Source of the DNA: Candidatus Marinacidobacterium sp.
Lineage (GTDB): Bacteria > Acidobacteriota > Vicinamibacteria > Marinacidobacterales > Marinacidobacteraceae
DNA: 64,000 nt
Direction: 5' to 3'
Assembly (NCBI GenBank): GCA_965204755.1
Contig: OZ242011.1
Location: 2,048,001-2,112,000 of the forward strand
Below the pieces are notes generated by a model. That model did no database searches, was not told the origin of the DNA, and worked only from the letters and a program-made list of their open reading frames with translations. Made by a program: the position numbers and the translations under genes. Positions 31,276 through 41,050 of this stretch are shown one piece after another; within the stretch, counting starts at the first letter, position 1; every line of letters begins with the position of its first letter.

Positions 31276-31650
31276 GTGGTCGGTCTCGCCGGTGTCTTCG
31301 CGGGAGGAGGGGCGCCGCGTGAGCCGCCCCGCCGGGGTCGCCGGGAGACGCCGTCCGCAAAAACGCCGAACCGCTGATTCTAGCCGGAGACCGGCCCGGA
31401 TCTTGGCCGCCCGGCCCTCGACTGGTACCCTCCGGCGCCCTGTGGAGCCGCGGCGCGGGCCGTCGGCCGCGGCGCCCGAACCCTCCCGGGGCGCGGGCGC
31501 TCACCGGAGGCGCCGATCCTCCCTCCCCCTGCGGGGGCGCGCTCCGAACCGTTGATTCGAAGCCCCTCCACGGGCTGTACCCGGGCGCCGGGCGGACCCG
31601 GCGCGGCGTTTTTCGCCGGCCTCGGCCCCTCTTCGTGCACGGAGGTAGTT

Positions 31651-34427
31651 GTGCGATTTACCCCCCCCCCCCCCCCCCCCCTACTTTTTGTTGCGCTTCG
31701 CTCACCGGCCGGGAGCGCCCGACATCGAGGGCGCTGACAGCGGCGTTCCTCGTCGCGTTCGCGGTCATTTCCATCGGTTGTAGCGAACAGTCGGCGTCCA
31801 CCGCGCCGGCGCCGGCTCCTCCCCCGGCAGCCGCGCCGGCCGCGCCCGCGCCGGGTGCGCCGGCGGACCTCCGGGTCTCGGCGACCGGCGTGGATTTCAT
31901 CGAGGTCTCCTGGAGCGCCGTCGAGGGGGCGACCGGCTACGAAGTCCAGTTGAGTCTTCTCGCCGCCGCCGACTTCAGTTCGGTAACGGCGGCGAATGTC
32001 ACCGGCCTGACCCACCGGTTCACGGTGGCCGCGGAGACGACCGGCCATGTGCGCGTCCGGGCCACGAGCGCCGGGACGAGGAGCGACTGGAGCGAAGCGG
32101 TGTCGGGGACGAGCCTCGCGGCGCCGCTGGCGCTCGCCGCGCCGATGCCGCGGGTTTCGGACACCGGGACCGACTTCATCGAGTGGAGTTGGGAAGCCGT
32201 GCCGGAGGCGCTGGCTTACGAGGCGCAGGTCAGCGCGACCGAGGACTTCGCCTCGGCGGAGACGGAGCGGGTAACCGGGACGAGCCACCGCGCGGCGGTC
32301 GAGCCCTCCACGACCGCGCGCCTGCGGGTCCGCGCGGTCGCGGGGACTTCGGCGGCGCCGATCGTCAGCGACTGGAGCGCGGCCGCGGAAGGGAGCAGCG
32401 CCGCGGCGGAAGTCGCGTTCACGGTCAGCCTGCGGCCGCCGGCCGTGAAGGACGACCGGGCCTGCGGCGGCCAGGCGTTCTGCCCGGACGAGGGCAGCGA
32501 CCTCGAGACGGCGACCGCGGCGATGAACCGGAGGATGGTCGTGACGAGTTCCACGCCGACGGAGGTCCGGCCGCTCTTCGTCGAGGGCGCCGCCGCGATC
32601 ACCGCGTCGGCGGGGGAGAGTTCGCCGTTCGCGTACAGCCGCTGGCCGGCGCTCCAGAAGACGATCGCGATGGAAGGCGTGTCGTTCGCGCTGCGGCGGG
32701 TCTCGATGGGCGCCGGCCAGGAGCCGACCCCGACCGGGAACACGCTCTACATCACCTGCGGCCCGTTCCGCTGTTCGGAGGCGGCGGACGAGACGCCGCC
32801 GGCCCCGCCGATCACGATCTCGGACTCCGCGGCGTGCTCCGGGTTCGAGCCGGACTTCACGCTGAACCCGGGCATGGCGCTGAACAACAACCCGAACCAG
32901 AACAACGGCTTGGACGCGGGCTGGACCTACACCTCGACCGTCCCGGCCACGGTGACGCATGTGTTCGAGGGGATCCCCGGGTCGAACGGGGGCCCGTTCC
33001 GGGTGAAGGGCGCCGCCATCCGGGCGACTTCGACCCCGGCGCCGCTGGACATGAGCCGGAACGACGCGACCGGCGTGAATGTCTTCGGCGGGACGCTCGA
33101 CAACGCTTGGACGAGCACCGGTTTCGGCGTCCAGAACCTGCAGGTAACGACCGCCGGCCCGATCCGCAACGGCGAGGACGACTGCTTCTTCGAGAGCGAG
33201 GACGCGTTCGGCGACCACAAGACCACGAGCGGAGGGTGGCACGCGAACGCCTGGCGGGCCGAGTGGGGGAGTTACGACCTCGTGGGCCGCGATGTCCGCA
33301 AGCCGGAGGAATGCTTCCGCATCATCACCTACGACACCGAAGACTGTTCGGGCAACCGCTGCGAGAACGACAACCCCTCCCGGGCCGACTACCTGCAGGG
33401 GTATTCGATCGAGGTGCAGCCGGAAGCCGCGGTTGCCTGGGCCGGCAGCGCGGTGGACTGGAGCAAGGTGGAGGGGTCGTTCGCCGAACTGGAATGCGAA
33501 CCCGTAACGATCTCCGCCTCGGCCCAGGTGGACATGTGCGACCTGTTCGAAGAGGAAGTGGATCTCTACTGGGGCCAGGGCCGGGTGGCCGACCTCGACG
33601 GGAGACCGGGAAGCGCCGAATTCAAGGTGCGGCCCGTGGTCCTCTTCGGCCGGGGCGAGGTCCCCGGCAGCCACCGGCTCGTCGAACTCAAGGCGACGCG
33701 GAACATGGGGCCGGGCGACTACCTGAATGCGCGGGACGCCGATGCCGCGGACCCGAACAGCGGTTTCTACCGCCCCCGGGGCAGCCGCTTCCTGTCACTC
33801 TGGCTCGCGGAGTTCGGGCCGAGGCAGACCGGAACCTGGATCGAAGCGAATCACGAGGCGCGGAATGTGGGGATCGACGGCACTCCGTGGGACTCGAACC
33901 TCTACTACTCGTCGGGGAACCACGCTTGGGAGTTCCTGGTCCATGGGCGTTGGTACGGGCACCCCAGCGGCCAGTGGATGGCTTGGCCCCAAGACGGCCT
34001 GACCCCTCCCGTTCCCCAGGCGCAGCACAACCAATGGCAGTTCCAGCGGGGAATCGTCGTCTTCCCGATGCAGGACCACGACGCCCATCCGATCCACGGG
34101 GACTTCGGCAAGGTGGACATCAACGGGGACGGCAAGGCGGACAACATGGGCGACGGCGCCGACCGCAACTGCTCGGACGCCGACGGGCCCGGCTGCGATG
34201 TGGACGAACTCGAACTCGACGGCGAAGCGACCTTCTCGCTCTACAAGAACTCCGAGGACTTGGCCTGCCATGTAACCCGGGAGGTCTCCATCACCTGCTC
34301 GTGGGACGCGTCGGGAGACGCGAACCGCTCCGGCCGCGGCGAGATCTGGGCGAACTGGAGCCAGGCCCGGACGAGGGACGACCGCACCACGAACGCGGGC
34401 GACTTCATCAGTTGCCGCGGGAACTGA
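31651..34427 (+). CDS. FN3-domain surface lipoprotein, copy 1 (out of frame at the poly-C tract, putative phase-OFF)
   Basis: RBS GGAGG at 31641, GTG at 31651, then C21. The GTG frame stops at 31737; the main frame carries lipobox ISIGC, a Pro/Ala linker, two FN3 domains and a Cys-rich C-terminal region. Confidence 0.8.
31661..31681. repeat. Poly-C homopolymer (C21), putative slipped-strand switch
   Basis: GTGCGATTTA followed by 21 C. Confidence 0.9.
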
Positions 34428-34447
34428 CGACCCGGTAGCCGCCGATC

Positions 34448-34480
34448 GGATCCCCCGGGCCGGCGGGCCCCGGGGGATCC
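34448..34480 (+). terminator. GC-rich hairpin after lipoprotein copy 1
   Basis: ggatcccccggg...cccgggggatcc inverted repeat; no clear U-tract. Confidence 0.5.
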
Positions 34481-34599
34481 CCCCTCCGTCGACCCGAGGG
34501 AGGAGCGGTCCCCTGCCGGTCTGCTATTTTCCGGCGCCCCGGACGCCGGATGGCCCGGCCGGGCGCTCGCGGCAGGCCGCGTTTCTCGAGGAGATCACC

Positions 34600-37379
34600 A
34601 TGCGATTTACCCCCCCCCCCCCCCCCCCCCCCCACTTATCGCGCGTCGCGCACCGGCCGCGAAGCGTCTCGCGCCGAAGTGGCCGGCGCTCGTTCTCGCG
34701 TTCGGGTTCCTGACCGTCGGTTGCAGTGAGCAGCAGTCGGCCACCACTCCGGCGCCGGCCCCTCCCCCCGCAGCCGCGCCGGCCGCGCCCACGCTGGGCG
34801 CGCCGGCCGACCTCCGGGTTTCGGCGACCGGCGTGGACTTCATCGAGGTCTCCTGGAGCGCCGTCGAGGGGGCGACCGGTTACGAAGCCCAGTTGAGTCT
34901 TCTCGCCGCCGCGGACTTCACTTCGGTAACGGCGGCGAATGTCACCGGTACGACGCACCGGTTCACGGTGGCCGCGGAGACGACCGGCCATGTGCGCGTC
35001 CGGGCGACGAGCGCCGAGACCCGGAGCGACTGGAGCGAAGCGGTGTCGGGGACCAGCTTCGCCGCGCCGCTGGCGCTCGCGGCGCCGATGCCGCGCGTGT
35101 CGGACACCGGGACGGACTTCATCGAGTGGAGTTGGGAAGCCGTGCCGGAGGCGCTGGCGTACGAAGTACAGGTGAGCGATTCGGAGGATTTCGCTTCGGC
35201 GGAGGCCGAGCGCGTAACCGGGACCAGCCACCGCGCGGCGGTCGAGCCCTCCACCACGGCGCACCTGCGGGTCCGCGCGGTCGCCGGGACCTCGGCGGCG
35301 CCGATCGTCAGCGACTGGAGCGCGGCGGCGGAAGGGAGCAGCGCCGCGGCGGAGATCGCGTTCACGGTGAGCCTGCGGCCGCCGGCCGCGAAGGACGACC
35401 GGGCCTGCAGCGGCCAAGCGTTCTGCCCGGACGAGGGGAGCGACCTCGAGACGGCGACGGCGGCGATGAACCCGCGGATGATCGTGACGAGTTCCACGCC
35501 GGCGGAAGTCCGCCCGCTCTTCGTCGAAGGCGCCGCCGCGATCACGGCGTCCGCCGGGGAGAGTTCGCCGTTCGCGTTCATCCGCTGGCCGGCGCTGCAG
35601 AAGACCGTCGCGATGGAAGGCGTGTCGTTCGCGCTGCGGCGGGTCTCCATGGGCGCCGGCCAGGAGCCGACGCCGACCGGGAACACCCTCTACATCACCT
35701 GCGGCCCGTTCCGCTGTTCCGAGGCGGCCGACGAGGCCCCGCCCGCGCCGCCGATCACGATCTCGGACTCGGCGGCCTGCTCCGGCTTCGAGGCGGACTT
35801 CACGCTGAACCCGGGCATGGCGCTGAACAACAACCCCAACCAGGAAAACGGCCTGGACGCGGGCTGGACCTACACCTCGACCGCCCCGGGCACGGTGACG
35901 CATGTGTTCGAGGGGATCCCGGGCCCCGCCGGAGGCCCGTTCCGGGTGAAGGGCCCCTCCTTCCGGGCGGCTTCCACGCCGACCCCGCTGGACATGAGCC
36001 GGAACGACGCGACGGGCGTGAATGTCTTCGGCGGGACGATAGACAACGACTACGACAACATCGGCGGTTTCGGCGTGCAGAACCTGCAGGTAACGACCGC
36101 CGGCCCGATCCGCAACGGCGAGGACGACTGCTTCTTCGAGAGCGAGGCCGCCTTCGGCGACCACCGGCACGCGAGCGGGGGCTGGCACCCGAACGCCTGG
36201 CGGGCGGAATGGGGGAGTTACGACATCGTGGGCCGCGATGTCCGCAAGCCGGAGGAGTGCTTCCGCATCATCACCTACGACACCGAGGACTGTTCGAGCA
36301 ACAACTGCCAGAACGACCACCCCTCCCGGACCGACTACCTGCAGGGGTATTCGATCGAGGTGCAGCCGGAGGCGGCGGTCGCCTGGGCCGGCAGCGGGGT
36401 GGACTGGAGCAGGGTGGAGGGGTCGTTCGCGGAACTCGAGTGCGAAGGCGTAACGATCTCCGCATCTGACCAGGTGGACATGTGCGAACTGTTCGAGGAG
36501 GAAGTGGACCTCTGGTGGGGTCAGGGCCGGATAGCCGGCCTCGACGGGCGACCGGGGAGCGCCGAGTTCAAGGTGCGGCCGGTGATCTTCTACGACCGGA
36601 GCGACGACACCATTACCGGAAACCGGCTCGTCGAACTCGCGGTTACCCGAAACATGGGGCCGGGCGACCGGTTCCACTTTTCGGACCCCGCCGTCGACGA
36701 TCCGGCCCGGGACATCCACCGCCCCCGGGGGAGCCGCTTCATGTCGCTCTGGCTCGCGGAATTCGGGCCGAGGCAACCGAATGTGGGGACCTGGCACGAG
36801 TGGCATCACGACAACAGCCGAGTGGGGATAGACGGCACGCCGTGGGATGTGAACCTCTACTACCCGGCGAACAACCACGCCTGGCAGGCGGAGGTCTTCG
36901 GGCTCTGGTACGGGCACCCCAGCGGTCAGTGGCAGGCTTGGCCGGCCGCCTCCCTGAGTCCTACGCCCACTGAACCGGACAAATGGTCATTCCAGCGCGG
37001 GGTCGTTACCTTCCCGATGCAGGACATCGACGCCCATCCGATCCACGGGGACTTCGGCAAGGTGGACATCGCCGAGGACGGCAAGGCGGACAACATGGGC
37101 GCCGGCGCCGACCGGAACTGCTCGGACGCCGACGGGCCCGGCTGCGATGTGGACGAACTCACGCTCGAAGGCGAAACGACCTTCTCGCTCTACAAGAACT
37201 CCGAGGACTTGCCCTGCCATGTAACCAAGCAGGTTTCGATCACCTGCTCGTGGGACGCGTCCGGAGACCGGGACCGCTCCGGCCGCGGCACGATCTGGGC
37301 GGACTGGTTTACCGCGTCCAGCGACGCCGACGCGTTCGCCACGAACGCCGGCGACTTCATCACTTGCCGCGGAAACTGA
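34600..37379 (+). CDS. FN3-domain surface lipoprotein, copy 2 (out of frame at the poly-C tract, putative phase-OFF)
   Basis: RBS GAGGAG, ATG at 34600, then C24. The ATG frame stops early; the main frame (that of ORF 34833) reads PLIARRAPAAKRLAPKWPALVLAFGFLTVGC, a lipobox. Confidence 0.8.
34610..34633. repeat. Poly-C homopolymer (C24), putative slipped-strand switch
   Basis: ATGCGATTTA followed by 24 C. Confidence 0.9.
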
Positions 37380-37395
37380 CGACCCGGTAGCCGCC

Positions 37396-37424
37396 GATCC
37401 CCGGGCCGGGCGGGCCCGGGGATC
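37396..37424 (+). terminator. GC-rich hairpin after lipoprotein copy 2
   Basis: gatccccgggcc...ggcccggggatc inverted repeat, homologous to the hairpin after copy 1. Confidence 0.5.
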
Positions 37425-37582
37425 CCCCCTCCGGCGCCCGCCGGGCGCCTCCCGGAGGCGCCGGGCCGGTGCGCGGGCCGCTCGGGGCGGTCCTCCGTCC
37501 GGTCTGCTAACTTCCGGCGTCCCGCGGGCCGGGTGGCCCGGCTTGGCCTTCCCGGCAGGCCGCGTCTCTCGAGGAGACCACG

Positions 37583-40360
37583 ATGCGAATTACCCCCCCC
37601 CCCCCCCCCCACTTACGCGCGTCGCGCGCCGGCCGGGAGCGCCCGAGGCTGAAGGCGCCGGCGGCGTGCTTCCTCGCGTTCGCGGTCCTGTCCGTCGGTT
37701 GCAGTGACCAGGAGCCGGCCACCACTCCGGCGCCGGCCCCGGCGCCCGCGCCGGCCGAGCCCACGCTGGGCGCGCCGATGGACCTCCGGGTTTCGGCGAC
37801 CGGCGTGGACTTCATCGAGGTCTCCTGGAGCGCCGTCGAGGGGGCGACCGGCTACGAAGTCCAGTTGAGTCTTCTCGCCGCCGACTTCAGTTCGGTAACG
37901 GCGGCGAATGTCACCGGCACGACGCACCGGTTCACGGTGGCCGCGGAGACGACCGGCCATGTGCGCGTCCGGGCCACGAGCGCCGAGACCCGCAGTGATT
38001 GGAGCGAAGCGGTGTCGGGGACGACCCTCGCGGCGCCGCTGGTGCTCGCCGCGCCGATGCCGCGTGTCTCGGACACCGGGACGGACTTCATCGAGTGGAC
38101 CTGGGAAGCCGTGCCGGAGGCGCTGGCGTACGAAGTACAGGTGAGCGATTCGGAGGATTTCGCTTCGGCGGAGGTCGAGCGCGTAACCGGGACCGGCCAC
38201 CGCGCGGCGGTCGAGCCGTCCACGACGGCGCACCTGCGGGTTCGGGCGGTCGCCGGGACCTCCGCGGCGCCCATCGTCAGCGACTGGAGCGCCGCGGCGG
38301 AAGGAATGAGCGCCGCGGTCGAAGTCGCGTTCACCGTGAGCCTGCGGCCGCCGGCCGCGAAGGACGACCGGGCCTGCGGCGGCCAAGCGTTCTGCCCGGA
38401 CGAGGGGAGCGACCTCGAGACGGCGACCGCGGCGATGAACCCGCGGATGATCGTGACGAGTTCCACGCCGGCGGAAGTCCGCCCGCTCTTCGTCGAAGGC
38501 GCCGCCGCGATCACCGCATCCGCCGGGGGGAGTTCGCCGTTCGCGTTCATCCGCTGGCCGGCGCTGCAGAAGACCGTCGCGATGGAAGGCGTGTCGTTCG
38601 CGCTGCGGCGGGTTTCCATGGGCGCCGGCCAGGAGCCGACGCCGACCGGGAACACGCTCTACATCACCTGCGGCCCGTTCCGCTGTTCCGAGGCGGCCGA
38701 CGAGGCCCCGCCGGCCCCGCCGATCACGATCTCGGACTCCGCGGCCTGCTCCGGCTTCGAGGCGGACTTCACGCTGAACCCGGGCATGGCGCTGAACAAC
38801 AACCCCAACCAGGAGAACGGCCTGGACGCGGGTTGGACTTACACCTCGACCGCCCCGGGCACGGTGACGCATGTGTTCGAGGGGATCCCGGGCCCCGCCG
38901 GAGGCCCGTTCCGGGTGAAGGGCCCCTCCTTCCGGGCGGCTTCCACGCCGACCCCGCTGGACATGAGCCGGAACGACGCGACGGGCGTGAATGTCTTCGG
39001 CGGGACGATAGACAACGACTACGACAACATCGGCGGTTTCGGCGTGCAGAACCTGCAGGTAACGACCGCCGGCCCGATCCGCAACGGCGAGGACGACTGC
39101 TTCTTCGAGAGCGAGGCCGCCTTCGGCGACCACCGGCACTCGAGCGGGGGCTGGCACCCGAACGCCTGGCGGGCCGAATGGGGGAGTTACGACATCGTGG
39201 GCCGCGATGTCCGCAAGCCGGAGGAGTGCTTCCGCATCATCACCTACGACACCGAGGACTGTTCGGGCAACAACTGCCAGAACGACCATCCTTCCCGGAC
39301 CGACTACCTGCAGGGGTATTCGATCGAGGTGCAGCCGGAGGCGGCGGTCGCCTGGGCCGGCAGCGGCGTGGACTGGAGCAGGGTGGAGGGGTCGTTCGCC
39401 GAATTGGAATGCGAGGGCGTAACGATCTCCGCCTCTGACCAGGTGGACATGTGCGACCTGTTCGAGGAGGAAGTGGACCTCTGGTGGGGTCAGGGCCGGA
39501 TCGCCGACCTCGACGGCCGACCGGGGAGCGCCGAGTTCAGGGTGCGGCCGACGATCTTCTACGACCGGAGCGACGACGCCATTCCCGGCGACCGGGTCGT
39601 TGACCTCAGGGTGACGCGGAACCTGGGCCCGGGCGACGCCCTCCATTTTCGGGACGCCGATGCCGCCGACCCGAACCGCGGTATCCACCGTCCCCGGGGC
39701 AGCCGCTTCATGTCGCTCTGGCTCGCGGAATGGGGGCCGAGGCAGACGGGCGGCAACAACCTGGTGGAGGGGAATCACGCGACGGGGCGGGTGGGGATAG
39801 ACGGCACGCCGTGGGACACGAACCTCTATTACTCGTCGGGGCTCCACGCCTGGGAGCAGGAGGTTTACGGGCTCCAGTACGGGCACCGCCGCCGCCAGTG
39901 GCAGGCCTGGCCCGGCGGCCACACCAGGAATCCCTCCATTGCAGCCAACGACCCGGACCACGCTCGCTACTTGTTCCAGCGGGGAATCGTCGTCTTCCCG
40001 ATGCAGGACCACGACGCCCATCCGATCCACGGGGACTTCGGCAAGGTGGACATCAACGGGGACGGCAAGGCGGACAACATGGGCGACGGCGCCGACCGCA
40101 ACTGCTCGGACGACGACGGCCCCGGCTGCGATGTGGACGAACTCGCGCTCGACGGCGAAGCGACCTTCTCGCTCTACCGGAACTCCCGCGACCTGGCCTG
40201 CCATGTAACCCGGGAGGTCTCCATCGCGTGTTCGTGGGACGCTTCGGGGGACCGGAACCGCTCCGGCCGCAGCATCATCTGGGAGAACTACTTCGAAGCC
40301 AGGACGAGCGACGACCGCACCACCAACGCCGGCGACTTCATCACTTGCCGCGGAAACTGA
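37583..40360 (+). CDS. FN3-domain surface lipoprotein, copy 3 (in frame, putative phase-ON)
   Basis: RBS GAGGAG, ATG CGA ATT A then C18; continuous 925-aa ORF with lipobox LSVGC, two FN3 domains and a DINGDGKAD Ca-binding-like motif. Confidence 0.88.
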   Translation: MRITPPPPPHLRASRAGRERPRLKAPAACFLAFAVLSVGCSDQEPATTPAPAPAPAPAEPTLGAPMDLRVSATGVDFIEVSWSAVEGATGYEVQLSLLAADFSSVTAANVTGTTHRFTVAAETTGHVRVRATSAETRSDWSEAVSGTTLAAPLVLAAPMPRVSDTGTDFIEWTWEAVPEALAYEVQVSDSEDFASAEVERVTGTGHRAAVEPSTTAHLRVRAVAGTSAAPIVSDWSAAAEGMSAAVEVAFTVSLRPPAAKDDRACGGQAFCPDEGSDLETATAAMNPRMIVTSSTPAEVRPLFVEGAAAITASAGGSSPFAFIRWPALQKTVAMEGVSFALRRVSMGAGQEPTPTGNTLYITCGPFRCSEAADEAPPAPPITISDSAACSGFEADFTLNPGMALNNNPNQENGLDAGWTYTSTAPGTVTHVFEGIPGPAGGPFRVKGPSFRAASTPTPLDMSRNDATGVNVFGGTIDNDYDNIGGFGVQNLQVTTAGPIRNGEDDCFFESEAAFGDHRHSSGGWHPNAWRAEWGSYDIVGRDVRKPEECFRIITYDTEDCSGNNCQNDHPSRTDYLQGYSIEVQPEAAVAWAGSGVDWSRVEGSFAELECEGVTISASDQVDMCDLFEEEVDLWWGQGRIADLDGRPGSAEFRVRPTIFYDRSDDAIPGDRVVDLRVTRNLGPGDALHFRDADAADPNRGIHRPRGSRFMSLWLAEWGPRQTGGNNLVEGNHATGRVGIDGTPWDTNLYYSSGLHAWEQEVYGLQYGHRRRQWQAWPGGHTRNPSIAANDPDHARYLFQRGIVVFPMQDHDAHPIHGDFGKVDINGDGKADNMGDGADRNCSDDDGPGCDVDELALDGEATFSLYRNSRDLACHVTREVSIACSWDASGDRNRSGRSIIWENYFEARTSDDRTTNAGDFITCRGN
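37593..37610. repeat. Poly-C homopolymer (C18)
   Basis: ATGCGAATTA followed by 18 C. Confidence 0.9.
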
Positions 40361-40447
40361 CGACCCGGTAGCCGCGGAATCGGGTCCCCCGGGCCGCCCG
40401 GCTCGGGGGATCCCGCGCCTCCCCGGAGGGGCCCGGTGAAGTCCGAA

Positions 40448-41050
40448 CTATGTGACGGGGCGGCGGTTCGCCGGCGGGTGCGCGGTGTCCCCGGCGAGCA
40501 GCCGGAGCGCGTGCGGGATCGTCGGCCCGAGCGTCCGCAGCCCGCTGGCCACCGCCCGCGGGCTCCCCGGCAGGACGACGACCAGCGCCGCGCCGACCGT
40601 TCCGGCGAAACTCCGGGCCAGCACCGCCATCGGCGTCTCCGCGAGCCCCTCCGCCCGCAGTCGTTCGCCGTAGCCGGGGACTTCCCGGTCGAGCAGCGGC
40701 CGCACCGCTTCGGGCGTCCGGTCCCGGGGGCCGAGCCCGGTCCCCCCGGTGGTGAGCACCAGCCGCGCGCCGGCCTCGAGGAACCCCCGGACGCCCTCCC
40801 GGATCGCCTCGACTTCGTCCGGCGCCACCGTCGAGGCGATGACCTCGAACCCGGCCCCCGCCAGCCACTCGCGGGCGACCGCCCCCGACCGGTCCGGCAC
40901 GACCCCGGCGGCGCACCCGTCGCTCGCGGTCAACACCGCCGCCGGAATGCGCCCCCCGGCGGCTCCCTCCGGTCTCGCCGCGACGGCCGCCTTCGGCGCC
41001 GCCTCCGCCGGCGTCCCGCCGCCCGGAGATTCGTTCGACGATCCGTTCAC
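40448..41050 (-). CDS. MogA/MoaB family molybdenum cofactor biosynthesis protein
   Basis: LTASD....DRSG, LTTGGTGLGPRDRTPEA and LPGSPRAV. Confidence 0.9.
   Translation of the reverse strand: MNGSSNESPGGGTPAEAAPKAAVAARPEGAAGGRIPAAVLTASDGCAAGVVPDRSGAVAREWLAGAGFEVIASTVAPDEVEAIREGVRGFLEAGARLVLTTGGTGLGPRDRTPEAVRPLLDREVPGYGERLRAEGLAETPMAVLARSFAGTVGAALVVVLPGSPRAVASGLRTLGPTIPHALRLLAGDTAHPPANRRPVT

Follow-up and report, generated by a model that had tools for sequence, protein, structure and literature searches.

INTRODUCTION

Repeat-driven phase variation is usually described for host-adapted pathogens that face adaptive immunity. The opa genes of Neisseria encode surface proteins in multiple copies, and each paralog carries a repeat in the region coding for its leader or signal peptide, by which the copies switch frame independently of one another. 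Here we describe an array of three adjacent lipoprotein genes, each with a long poly-C tract just 3′ of its start codon and before its signal peptide, which lies in a 64,000-nucleotide stretch of DNA (G000:C1:2048001-2112000, hereafter the window) of the host genome G000, a single contig of 3,975,858 bp with 71.7% G+C. The array resembles opa as a paralog family in which every copy has its own repeat in the signal-peptide region, a layout suited to combinatorial surface variation. In contrast to the array, however, Opa proteins are small beta-barrel outer-membrane proteins switched by a CTCTT pentamer, whereas the repeat of the array is a homopolymer and its products are FN3 lipoproteins with no sequence or fold relation to Opa; moreover, the host is a sponge-associated member of the Acidobacteriota and not a human pathogen.

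Mononucleotide runs serve the same purpose in other genes. A poly-G lies in the signal-peptide region of Neisseria pilC, Mycoplasma hominis vaa has a poly-A in its 5′ coding region, and the tracts of these two genes and of Listeria inlA are about 7-13 nt long. For inlA, a 5′ poly-A switch is described in PMC2831843. In all three, as would be the case in the array, a run situated a few codons 3′ of the start codon determines in which frame a secreted or lipoprotein adhesin is read, whereas the array tracts measure 18-24 nt, the device is spread over a paralog family, and the coding strand carries C or G.

At the level of whole genomes, Campylobacter jejuni, which is not known to have MutS and MutL, and Neisseria meningitidis offer the closest parallels. 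By the reports on the C. jejuni poly-G 'phasome' (PMC6321876) and on the simple-sequence repeat repertoire of N. meningitidis (PMC5084427), the likeness to G000 consists in dozens of G/C tracts at surface, glycan-modification and restriction-modification genes and in bimodal run lengths, whereas G000 differs by its 72% G+C, by tracts about twice as long, by its marine sponge habitat and by having an uncharacterised lipoprotein family as the main target. Because mismatch repair is not missing from G000, its system resembles the mismatch repair-proficient cases more closely than Campylobacter.

As for the proteins themselves, SusE-like and other FN3 surface lipoproteins likewise have an N-terminal lipobox followed by immunoglobulin/FN3-like beta-sandwich domains, but the array has no SusC/SusD-type neighbours and its products end in a 680-residue C-terminal region without a counterpart in those proteins. 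We found no homology of the array proteins to Opa, PilC, Vaa, InlA or the phase-variable proteins of Campylobacter and Neisseria. The author of a preliminary description of the window had known of no such description for an Acidobacteriota-like organism, and our searches of the full-text literature agree in that none of the papers listed describes such a system for Acidobacteria/Acidobacteriota or for sponge symbionts, although supplementary tables (PMC2831843 Additional File 1) could list comparable high-G+C cases. Term searches met no mention of Acidobacteria in the accessible text of a 2025 review (PMC11868660) or of PMC2831843. Thus, as far as we have found, the mechanism is classical, while the lineage, the habitat, the 14-39-nt tracts, the interchangeability of C and G and the target family are new.

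RESULTS AND DISCUSSION

Three tandem lipoprotein genes carry a poly-C tract between start codon and signal peptide

The array occupies the middle of the window and consists of the features given below, whose ribosome-binding sites and starts were read from the sequence (all coordinates are those of the window).

31635-31637, + strand: alternative GTG of copy 1, in frame with the main open reading frame (ORF) at C21; possible tract-independent start
31641-31645 and 31651-31653, + strand: ribosome-binding site GGAGG and start codon GTG of copy 1
31661-31681, + strand: poly-C of copy 1, C21; out of frame, restored by +1 or -2 C
31683-34427, + strand: main frame of copy 1 after the tract, with signal peptide, lipobox Cys (31779-31781), two FN3 domains, large C-terminal region and stop codon (34425-34427)
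34588-34593 and 34600-34602, + strand: ribosome-binding site GAGGAG and start codon ATG of copy 2
34610-34633, + strand: poly-C of copy 2, C24; out of frame, restored by +1 or -2 C
34635-37379, + strand: main frame of copy 2 after the tract, with lipobox Cys (34722-34724) and stop codon (37377-37379)
37571-37576 and 37583-37585, + strand: ribosome-binding site GAGGAG and start codon ATG of copy 3
37593-37610, + strand: poly-C of copy 3, C18; in frame, encoding Thr-Pro5-His in the n-region of the signal peptide
37583-40360, + strand: complete gene of copy 3, 925 aa, with N-terminus MRITPPPPPH..., lipobox ...LSVGC and lipobox Cys40 at 37700-37702
37772-38317, + strand: tandem FN3 domains of copy 3, residues ~64-245, from Foldseek on an AlphaFold2 model
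38318-40357, + strand: uncharacterised Cys-rich C-terminal region of copy 3, residues 246-925
~39680-40030, + strand: most divergent block among the paralogs, as located in copy 3 (alignment codon columns 690-805)

The three proteins are 82-86% identical, and the DNA of the copies is 84-100% identical across most of the first 2 kb, falling to 71-81% in a block near the 3′ end; repeated 31-mers make up 23% of the interval 31400-40500. Each tract begins 10 nt after the start and is preceded by the same leader, (G/A)TG CGA (T/A)TT A, and a Shine-Dalgarno-like GGAGG or GAGGAG lies 5-6 nt 5′ of each of the three starts. The GTG at 31651 is also the start that matches the N-terminus, MRFTPPP..., of orthologous proteins of copy 1 in other assemblies.

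When the copies were translated from these Shine-Dalgarno-linked starts, copy 3 alone was continuous with its 925-codon ORF. Translation of copies 1 and 2 from GTG 31651 and ATG 34600, respectively, ran into a stop within ~28-36 codons, while both genes were otherwise uninterrupted, with 914 codons open after the tract. Between tract and lipobox Cys, the main frame of none of the three copies contains an ATG, GTG or TTG, and therefore a normal lipoprotein precursor needs a start 5′ of the tract; in copy 2 the first such codon of the main frame is GTG 34833, itself 3′ of the lipobox. In the public annotation, copies 1 and 2 appear as P0136 (845 residues) and P0134 (848 residues), both of which begin 3′ of the lipobox and have no signal peptide. 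The only further homopolymer of at least 8 nt in the window is a C8 at 44417.

These results leave the anatomical part of the preliminary description intact. The positions of the C21, C24 and C18 tracts, the leaders, the Shine-Dalgarno-linked starts and the lipoboxes proved exact on re-reading; codon reading and a script agreed with its statement that only copy 3 is in frame and that adding one C or removing two restores the other copies; and the absence of a comparably long homopolymer elsewhere in the window, as well as the otherwise intact state of the OFF copies, were found as it had said.

Related genomes keep the layout with mixed reading phases

The preliminary description had proposed a search of related genomes for the same 5′ tract on the same family, and that search was positive: such tracts were present in 19 genes of G010, which belongs to another genus of the same GTDB family, and in 7 genes of G001, a congener of G000. 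In G010, the 19 family genes account for 19 of the 29 tracts of the genome, and all of them have the layout of a Shine-Dalgarno sequence, an ATG, 2-7 codons, C14-31, a short A/T-rich motif, a signal peptide, a lipobox and a Pro/Ala/Glu linker. From the Shine-Dalgarno-linked ATG, 7 of the 19 are in frame and 12 out of frame, 6 of these needing -1 and 6 needing +1, and all remain open for at least 337 codons further on, in most cases as far as the 3.1-kb pieces examined extend. In the seven genes of G001 the homopolymer is a G19-31 on the coding strand, again placed between a start with a Shine-Dalgarno sequence and the signal peptide; in an eighth family gene of that genome a C26 lies ~200 nt 5′ of the region matching copy 3.

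Over the array (1/3), G010 (7/19) and G001 (0/7), 8 of 29 genes are thus in frame, which is near the one third that an unconstrained phase would give and far from the 29 of 29 that a coding spacer would give. Moreover, the homopolymer is conserved while the encoded residue, Pro or Gly, is not, which points to a role at the level of DNA, and since the out-of-frame classes go in both directions, a one-sided miscalling of homopolymers does not explain them. Outside the lipoprotein family, an orthologous tract at a DUF4007 gene differs in length between the two congeneric species, C20 in G000 and C23 in G001. This locus alone stands out when tract flanks are compared all against all between G000 and G001 (0.72/0.83, against 0.61-0.72 for unrelated pairs).

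Tract length and frame differ between samples

For a comparison of samples we used Logan contigs of four runs from three studies, which differ from the window at 0-16 positions per piece; the comparison concerned tract 1, the interval 34602-34645 with tract 2 being masked and tract 3 lying outside the stretch compared. Run X1 supplied a contig of 1267 bp (depth 16.9, 16 substitutions) that spans tract 1 and has 8 C fewer there than the window. Its C13 is in frame from GTG 31651. Apart from this, the contig shows a single gap, an in-frame one of 3 nt at 31955, 3′ of the lipobox.

A second line of evidence came from the 90%-identity protein clusters that contain window proteins, which have 18, 14 and 2 members, 31 of these 34 being examined. 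Besides copy 3 of the window (P0121), five full-length forms begin at the same start and differ in their Pro runs, as follows.

P0002: 3 Pro
P0135: a G interruption, then 5 Pro
P0146: 6 Pro
P0147: 7 and 6 Pro
P0003: 6 Pro

Among the remaining members, P0124 is read in a third frame, P0143 starts 3′ of the tract, P0148 has a compensating change 5′ of the tract, and 17 forms of 844-851 aa, P0136 and P0134 included, are called from MDFIEVSW beyond the lipobox; five more are fragments. Thus, at the level of assemblies, tract length and frame differ between samples.

The contigs of other samples also depart from the window between the copies, those of runs X11, X12 and X1 at 34447 and 34562. In X11, a contig connects 34897 with 31958 and so places a copy-2-like 5′ end on a copy-1 body, which suggests recombination between the paralogs or another copy number in other strains.

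The OFF copies are under purifying selection

To the question of decay, which the preliminary description had referred to the ratio of nonsynonymous to synonymous substitution rates (dN/dS) of the OFF copies, the answer was purifying selection at values of 0.40-0.48. Using the Nei-Gojobori method on the three window copies aligned by codon, we obtained pairwise dS of 0.18-0.29 with dN/dS of 0.40, 0.40 and 0.48, copy 1 giving 0.40 against copy 2 (dS 0.29) as well as against copy 3. In the core, codons 115-460, dN/dS was 0.00-0.26, and 0.10-0.23 for the pair of OFF copies. By comparison, the divergent block in columns 690-805 had a dN of 0.28-0.34 and a dN/dS of 0.45-0.73. The three copies are all under purifying selection, with a fast-evolving patch and no decay.

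The array belongs to a genome-wide set of tracts

Counting C/G runs over the whole of G000 gave a bimodal distribution: there are 1955 runs of length 6, 266 of length 7, 45 of length 8 and 5 of length 9, none of 10-13, and 37 of 14-34. The ~7-fold fall per extra base extrapolates to well under 0.001 runs of at least 14 nt in the genome, and a chance origin of the tracts is excluded. The three-gene array is therefore no local oddity but part of a genome-wide set of 37 tracts. The preliminary description had presented it as a three-gene contingency locus; this interpretation is supported by the frames, the differences between samples and the conserved tract, but the implied isolation of the locus is not, the array being one unit of the 37 tracts.

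Many of the other 34 tracts lie just 3′ of a start codon or just 5′ of a gene, and surface or defence genes are frequent among them. Pfam matches in the downstream frames comprise three SGNH/GDSL/AlgX-like proteins plus one weaker match, another paralog with a tract, the fifth, lying at 253704; a PMT_2 glycosyltransferase; an arylsulfotransferase-like protein that has a cadherin-like domain and, at 72558, a tandem twin which is also tract-bearing; a TonB-dependent receptor Plug protein (C20); a DUF4007 protein (C20); an amidohydrolase; and a TetR regulator. The SGNH/AlgX-like, PMT_2 and TonB Plug proteins, together with an N6_N4 DNA methylase and two giant open frames described below, match classical contingency repertoires.

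MutS and MutL both score above their cut-offs in G000, and each does so in 39 of 41 genomes. Tract proliferation through loss of mismatch repair was accordingly considered and rejected, MutS and MutL being present.

A probable slipped-strand contingency system and its alternatives

Given the anatomy of the array, the conservation of its layout, the mixed phases, the differences between samples and the selection on the copies, we regard it as likely that the three genes are slipped-strand, simple-sequence contingency loci, each copy forming an independent and reversible ON/OFF unit. Four marks of a repeat locus of this type were found here, namely excess tract length, a frame-setting position, length polymorphism between samples and OFF alleles that are intact and under selection. 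In such a system, slipped-strand mispairing during replication would lengthen or shorten the poly-C, and the change of length would decide whether the only Shine-Dalgarno-linked start shares the frame of the main part of the gene. Each copy would then be ON at one length in three and otherwise OFF, independently of the others and reversibly, and a clonal population would come to contain differing combinations of the three lipoprotein variants. Within one population the switching would presumably be reversible and of high frequency, the lipoproteins would be exposed at the surface, and the selective agent may be host recognition or phagocytosis, or phage.

A number of points weigh against this reading. 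Tracts as long as these could cause slippage of RNA polymerase or of the ribosome and so blur the ON and OFF states, and the GTG at 31635 of copy 1 is in frame at the present tract length. Not one of the seven poly-G genes of G001 is in frame; in these genes, and likewise in some of G010, a GTG 3′ of the tract could start a normal signal peptide, and where such a later start exists the tract may act from the leader and not by ON/OFF framing. The presence of MutS and MutL is unlike some classical phase-variable species. As to the samples, the contigs of X9, X11 and X12 break inside tract 1, Logan contigs drop rare variants and so place the spectrum of tract lengths within a population beyond their reach, and the assemblies and gene calls behind the comparison are of unjudged independence. 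Homopolymers of 14-39 nt are error-prone on all platforms, those behind G000, G001, G010 and the ENA assemblies being unspecified, and single frame calls may for this reason be wrong.

Polymerase slippage and +1 shifting at CCC-C are known phenomena, and the tract could on this basis be a dimmer and not a switch, every copy yielding some in-frame product at any DNA length and the tract with its poly-Pro mainly lowering or tuning expression. Tracts of 14-39 nt are indeed far longer than slipped-strand switches need, and 8 of 29 in frame is likewise expected without selection on phase; however, copies 1 and 2 would call for a shift of -1 or +2, where the usual one is a single +1, the poly-G at the equivalent place in G001 argues against any general Pro-specific translational effect, and tract lengths differ between samples already at the DNA level. 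We consider the dimmer unlikely as the explanation of the array; it is compatible with DNA switching, and the two could operate together. Very improbable in our view is that every copy in reality has a fixed, in-frame length, the OFF states being homopolymer miscalls and the run a poly-Pro spacer of the n-region. Homopolymers of more than 15 nt are hard for every platform, the contigs of three runs break in tract 1, and the genomes G007, G016 and G020 show artefact-like run pairs at or near contig ends, yet this would take miscalls in both directions at 21 of the 29 family loci, spread over three complete and independent genomes, and the X1 contig differs by 8 nt and not by 1. In addition, in-frame orthologues have clearly different Pro runs (3, 5, 6 and 7+6), and since poly-Gly stands in place of poly-Pro in G001, no peptide is conserved.

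The two remaining alternatives concern the OFF copies themselves. We see only a very slim chance that copy 1 is expressed at any tract length from GTG 31635 or from another non-canonical start, which would leave copy 2 as the only one truly off. At C21 this GTG shares an uninterrupted frame with the main ORF, and initiation there would yield a longer but plausible signal peptide, whereas the 16 nt upstream of it hold no purine-rich Shine-Dalgarno motif, in contrast to the GGAGG 5 nt before GTG 31651; it has no counterpart in copies 2 and 3, it is skipped by the gene callers (the public call for copy 1, P0136, has 845 aa), and it is in frame only at lengths of 0 modulo 3, by which it would merely turn copy 1 into a two-start switch. 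That copies 1 and 2 are post-duplication pseudogenes, with copy 3 alone functional and the tracts mutational debris, is hardly credible. Two of the three copies are frameshifted at the 5′ end, and the public calls P0136 and P0134 are 5′-truncated and lack a signal peptide; but 914 codons stay open in both with no further lesion, dN/dS between copies 1 and 2 is 0.40 at a dS of 0.29 and 0.10-0.23 in the core, other assemblies have in-frame orthologues of copy 1, including the C13 of X1, and 26 genes of two further genomes (19 in G010, 7 in G001) retain the architecture.

Extending the proposal of slipped-strand contingency loci from the array to the family, we lean, with some reserve, towards the view that these sponge-associated Acidobacteriota, as a family, maintain an extensive hypermutable 'phasome' although their mismatch-repair genes are intact. 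The 29-48 G/C tracts (14-39 nt) of each of three complete genomes would gate genes stochastically, including the diversifying FN3 lipoproteins and, in G000, also giant surface proteins, glycan modifiers, a TonB-dependent receptor and a DNA methyltransferase (a possible phasevarion); bet-hedging surface variation of a kind known from vertebrate pathogens would then operate in a symbiont whose host animal has no adaptive immunity. The pressures behind such a phasome are likely to be phage or phagocytic recognition by the sponge. In contrast to the usual case, this would be a genome-wide system common to several genera of one family of high-G+C, sponge-associated Acidobacteriota, and, if true, it would widen the ecological and taxonomic range of contingency loci and point to specific molecules as candidates for the recognition between symbiont and host, or symbiont and phage, in sponges. 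Furthermore, since OFF copies are annotated as 5′-truncated cytoplasmic proteins (845-851 aa, beginning MDFIEVSW), the annotations and pangenomes of the lineage misdescribe part of its surface repertoire.

Predicted FN3 domains and a large C-terminal head in the encoded lipoprotein

In the protein encoded by each copy, a signal peptide ending in a lipobox is followed by a Pro/Ala linker, a pair of FN3 domains and a Cys-rich domain of ~680 residues. After an Arg-rich stretch, the signal peptides end in ...AFAVISIGC (copy 1), ...AFGFLTVGC (copy 2) and ...AFAVLSVGC (copy 3), which we take to be lipoboxes by comparison with the consensus; G39 and C40 are invariant in 57 homologues. G000 encodes lgt (130 bits, cut-off 118.9) and lspA (120.3 bits, cut-off 73.95), and a lipoprotein pathway thus exists in this genome.

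At the level of sequence profiles, PF00041 (fn3) stayed below its cut-off of 25 with 18.4 and 21.3 bits and had no match in copy 2, and SusE (PF14292) reached 23.5 against a cut-off of 25.2 bits in copy 3 only; some homologues have a precomputed PF00041 match. A search of PDB sequences returned nothing significant, only FN3 chains at E 0.22-0.92, and a protein atlas search gave no usable match. An AlphaFold2 model of copy 3, built from 57 sequences, had a mean predicted local distance difference test (pLDDT) score of 78.9, with ~90 over residues ~60-250, and this part matched tandem FN3 pairs in Foldseek with a probability of 1.00, E values from 2.8e-11 and template modelling (TM) scores of at most 0.53 (target-normalised). 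In the predicted structure, the FN3 beta-sandwich fold of residues ~60-250 is confirmed, and with it the preliminary assignment of FN3 domains.

For the C-terminal region of ~680 residues we found no Pfam match and no PDB-sequence match. A separate model of residues 245-925, built from 17 sequences, had a pLDDT of 69.6, and Foldseek with this model returned no PDB match at E <= 0.001, the best having E 0.075 and TM <0.15. As modelled, the lipoprotein combines its FN3 domains with a large head that has many beta strands and cysteines and no recognised fold; that the family serves as an adhesin or receptor, as the preliminary description had it, is a guess.

Host, habitat and distribution of the family

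The best named relatives of the RpoB of G000 are Acidobacteriota metagenome-assembled genomes at no more than 65% identity, and the top 21 among the 80 matches listed carry Acidobacteriota-type names, which bears out the affiliation suggested earlier from the window alone; the set scanned may lack the nearest genomes. The sequencing runs that contain the region come from four studies and are labelled as sponge and marine metagenomes and two coded organisms.

With copy 3 as query, the lipoprotein family was present in all 24 further genomes searched from the GTDB family of G000, with 16 matches in G000, 27 in G001 and 52 in G010, and in none of 16 genomes of two sister families, a tally that includes G033, flagged as unpublished. 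A protein database contained 149 homologues at E <= 1e-5, none of them named; among the 120 listed, most start with an ordinary lipoprotein signal peptide without a tract. Searching genome contigs for loci related to copy 3 gave none, and scanning metagenome contigs with the start-plus-tract motif gave 10 matches, all with unrelated flanks and 9 of them at 40-58% G+C.

Runs of at least 14 nt occurred in 22 of 27 other genomes of the family searched, as opposed to 2 of 16 genomes of the sister families. The complete genomes G000, G001 and G010 have 29-48 such tracts each, with lengths of 14-39 nt over the three; the counts per genome were as follows.

G000: 37 tracts
G001: 48 tracts
G010: 29 tracts
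G015: 13 tracts
G006: 10 tracts
G005: 7 tracts
G004: 5 tracts

The fragmented genomes G007, G016 and G020 have many back-to-back pairs of a G-run and a C-run at or near contig ends. These pairs are probably sequencing or assembly artefacts, and the tracts of the three genomes were not counted as evidence; in general, tract counts from fragmented assemblies of this GTDB family should not be trusted.

Around the array, the flanking genes of the window are housekeeping genes of other transcription units and encode NADH dehydrogenase subunits, a short-chain dehydrogenase, DksA, a molybdenum-cofactor protein and VWA and WYL proteins. A consensus scan of 31300-40700 for sigma-70 promoters and terminators returned 0 promoter-like and 2 terminator-like sites, against 3.6 expected.

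Further tract-bearing loci

A gene for an N6_N4 DNA methylase (Pfam E 9e-40; G000:C1:2397822-2398783, - strand) has a C26 at its 5′ end, and a methyltransferase-like gene of G010, L104, is also tract-bearing (C19). Tract-bearing methylase genes such as these are candidates for a phase-variable methyltransferase, a 'phasevarion'.

Two giant open frames of G000 are each preceded by two tandem modules of an ATG plus poly-C, ~180-210 nt apart. One frame, of 10,697 codons, lies at G000:C1:507401-539491 (- strand), with tracts at 539246-539277 and 539458-539480 (C32, C23); the other, of 3,915 codons, lies at G000:C1:947620-959364, with tracts at 959326-959349 and 959505-959526 (C24, C22). Three of these modules were scored, the C22 module being left out, and all three were out of frame. 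The tandem modules look like dual switches for giant surface proteins.

In two adjacent SGNH/GDSL-like paralogs at G000:C1:251482-253886 (- strand), the tract stands at an equal N-terminal position with the opposite base on the coding strand, one having C26 and being in frame, the other having G15 and being out of frame from the nearest ATG. A paralog of the lipoprotein family at G000:C1:2777147-2780069 (- strand) has an internal tract, G17 on the coding strand at 2779076-2779092, near residue 345, which splits the gene into two frames; the match also holds one TGA.

When the 114 tracts of the three complete genomes were oriented as C, position -2 was T in 19 of 37 (G000), 32 of 48 (G001) and 20 of 29 (G010), and the first bases 3′ of the tracts were A/T-rich (GAAATT in G010), which is striking at ~70% G+C.

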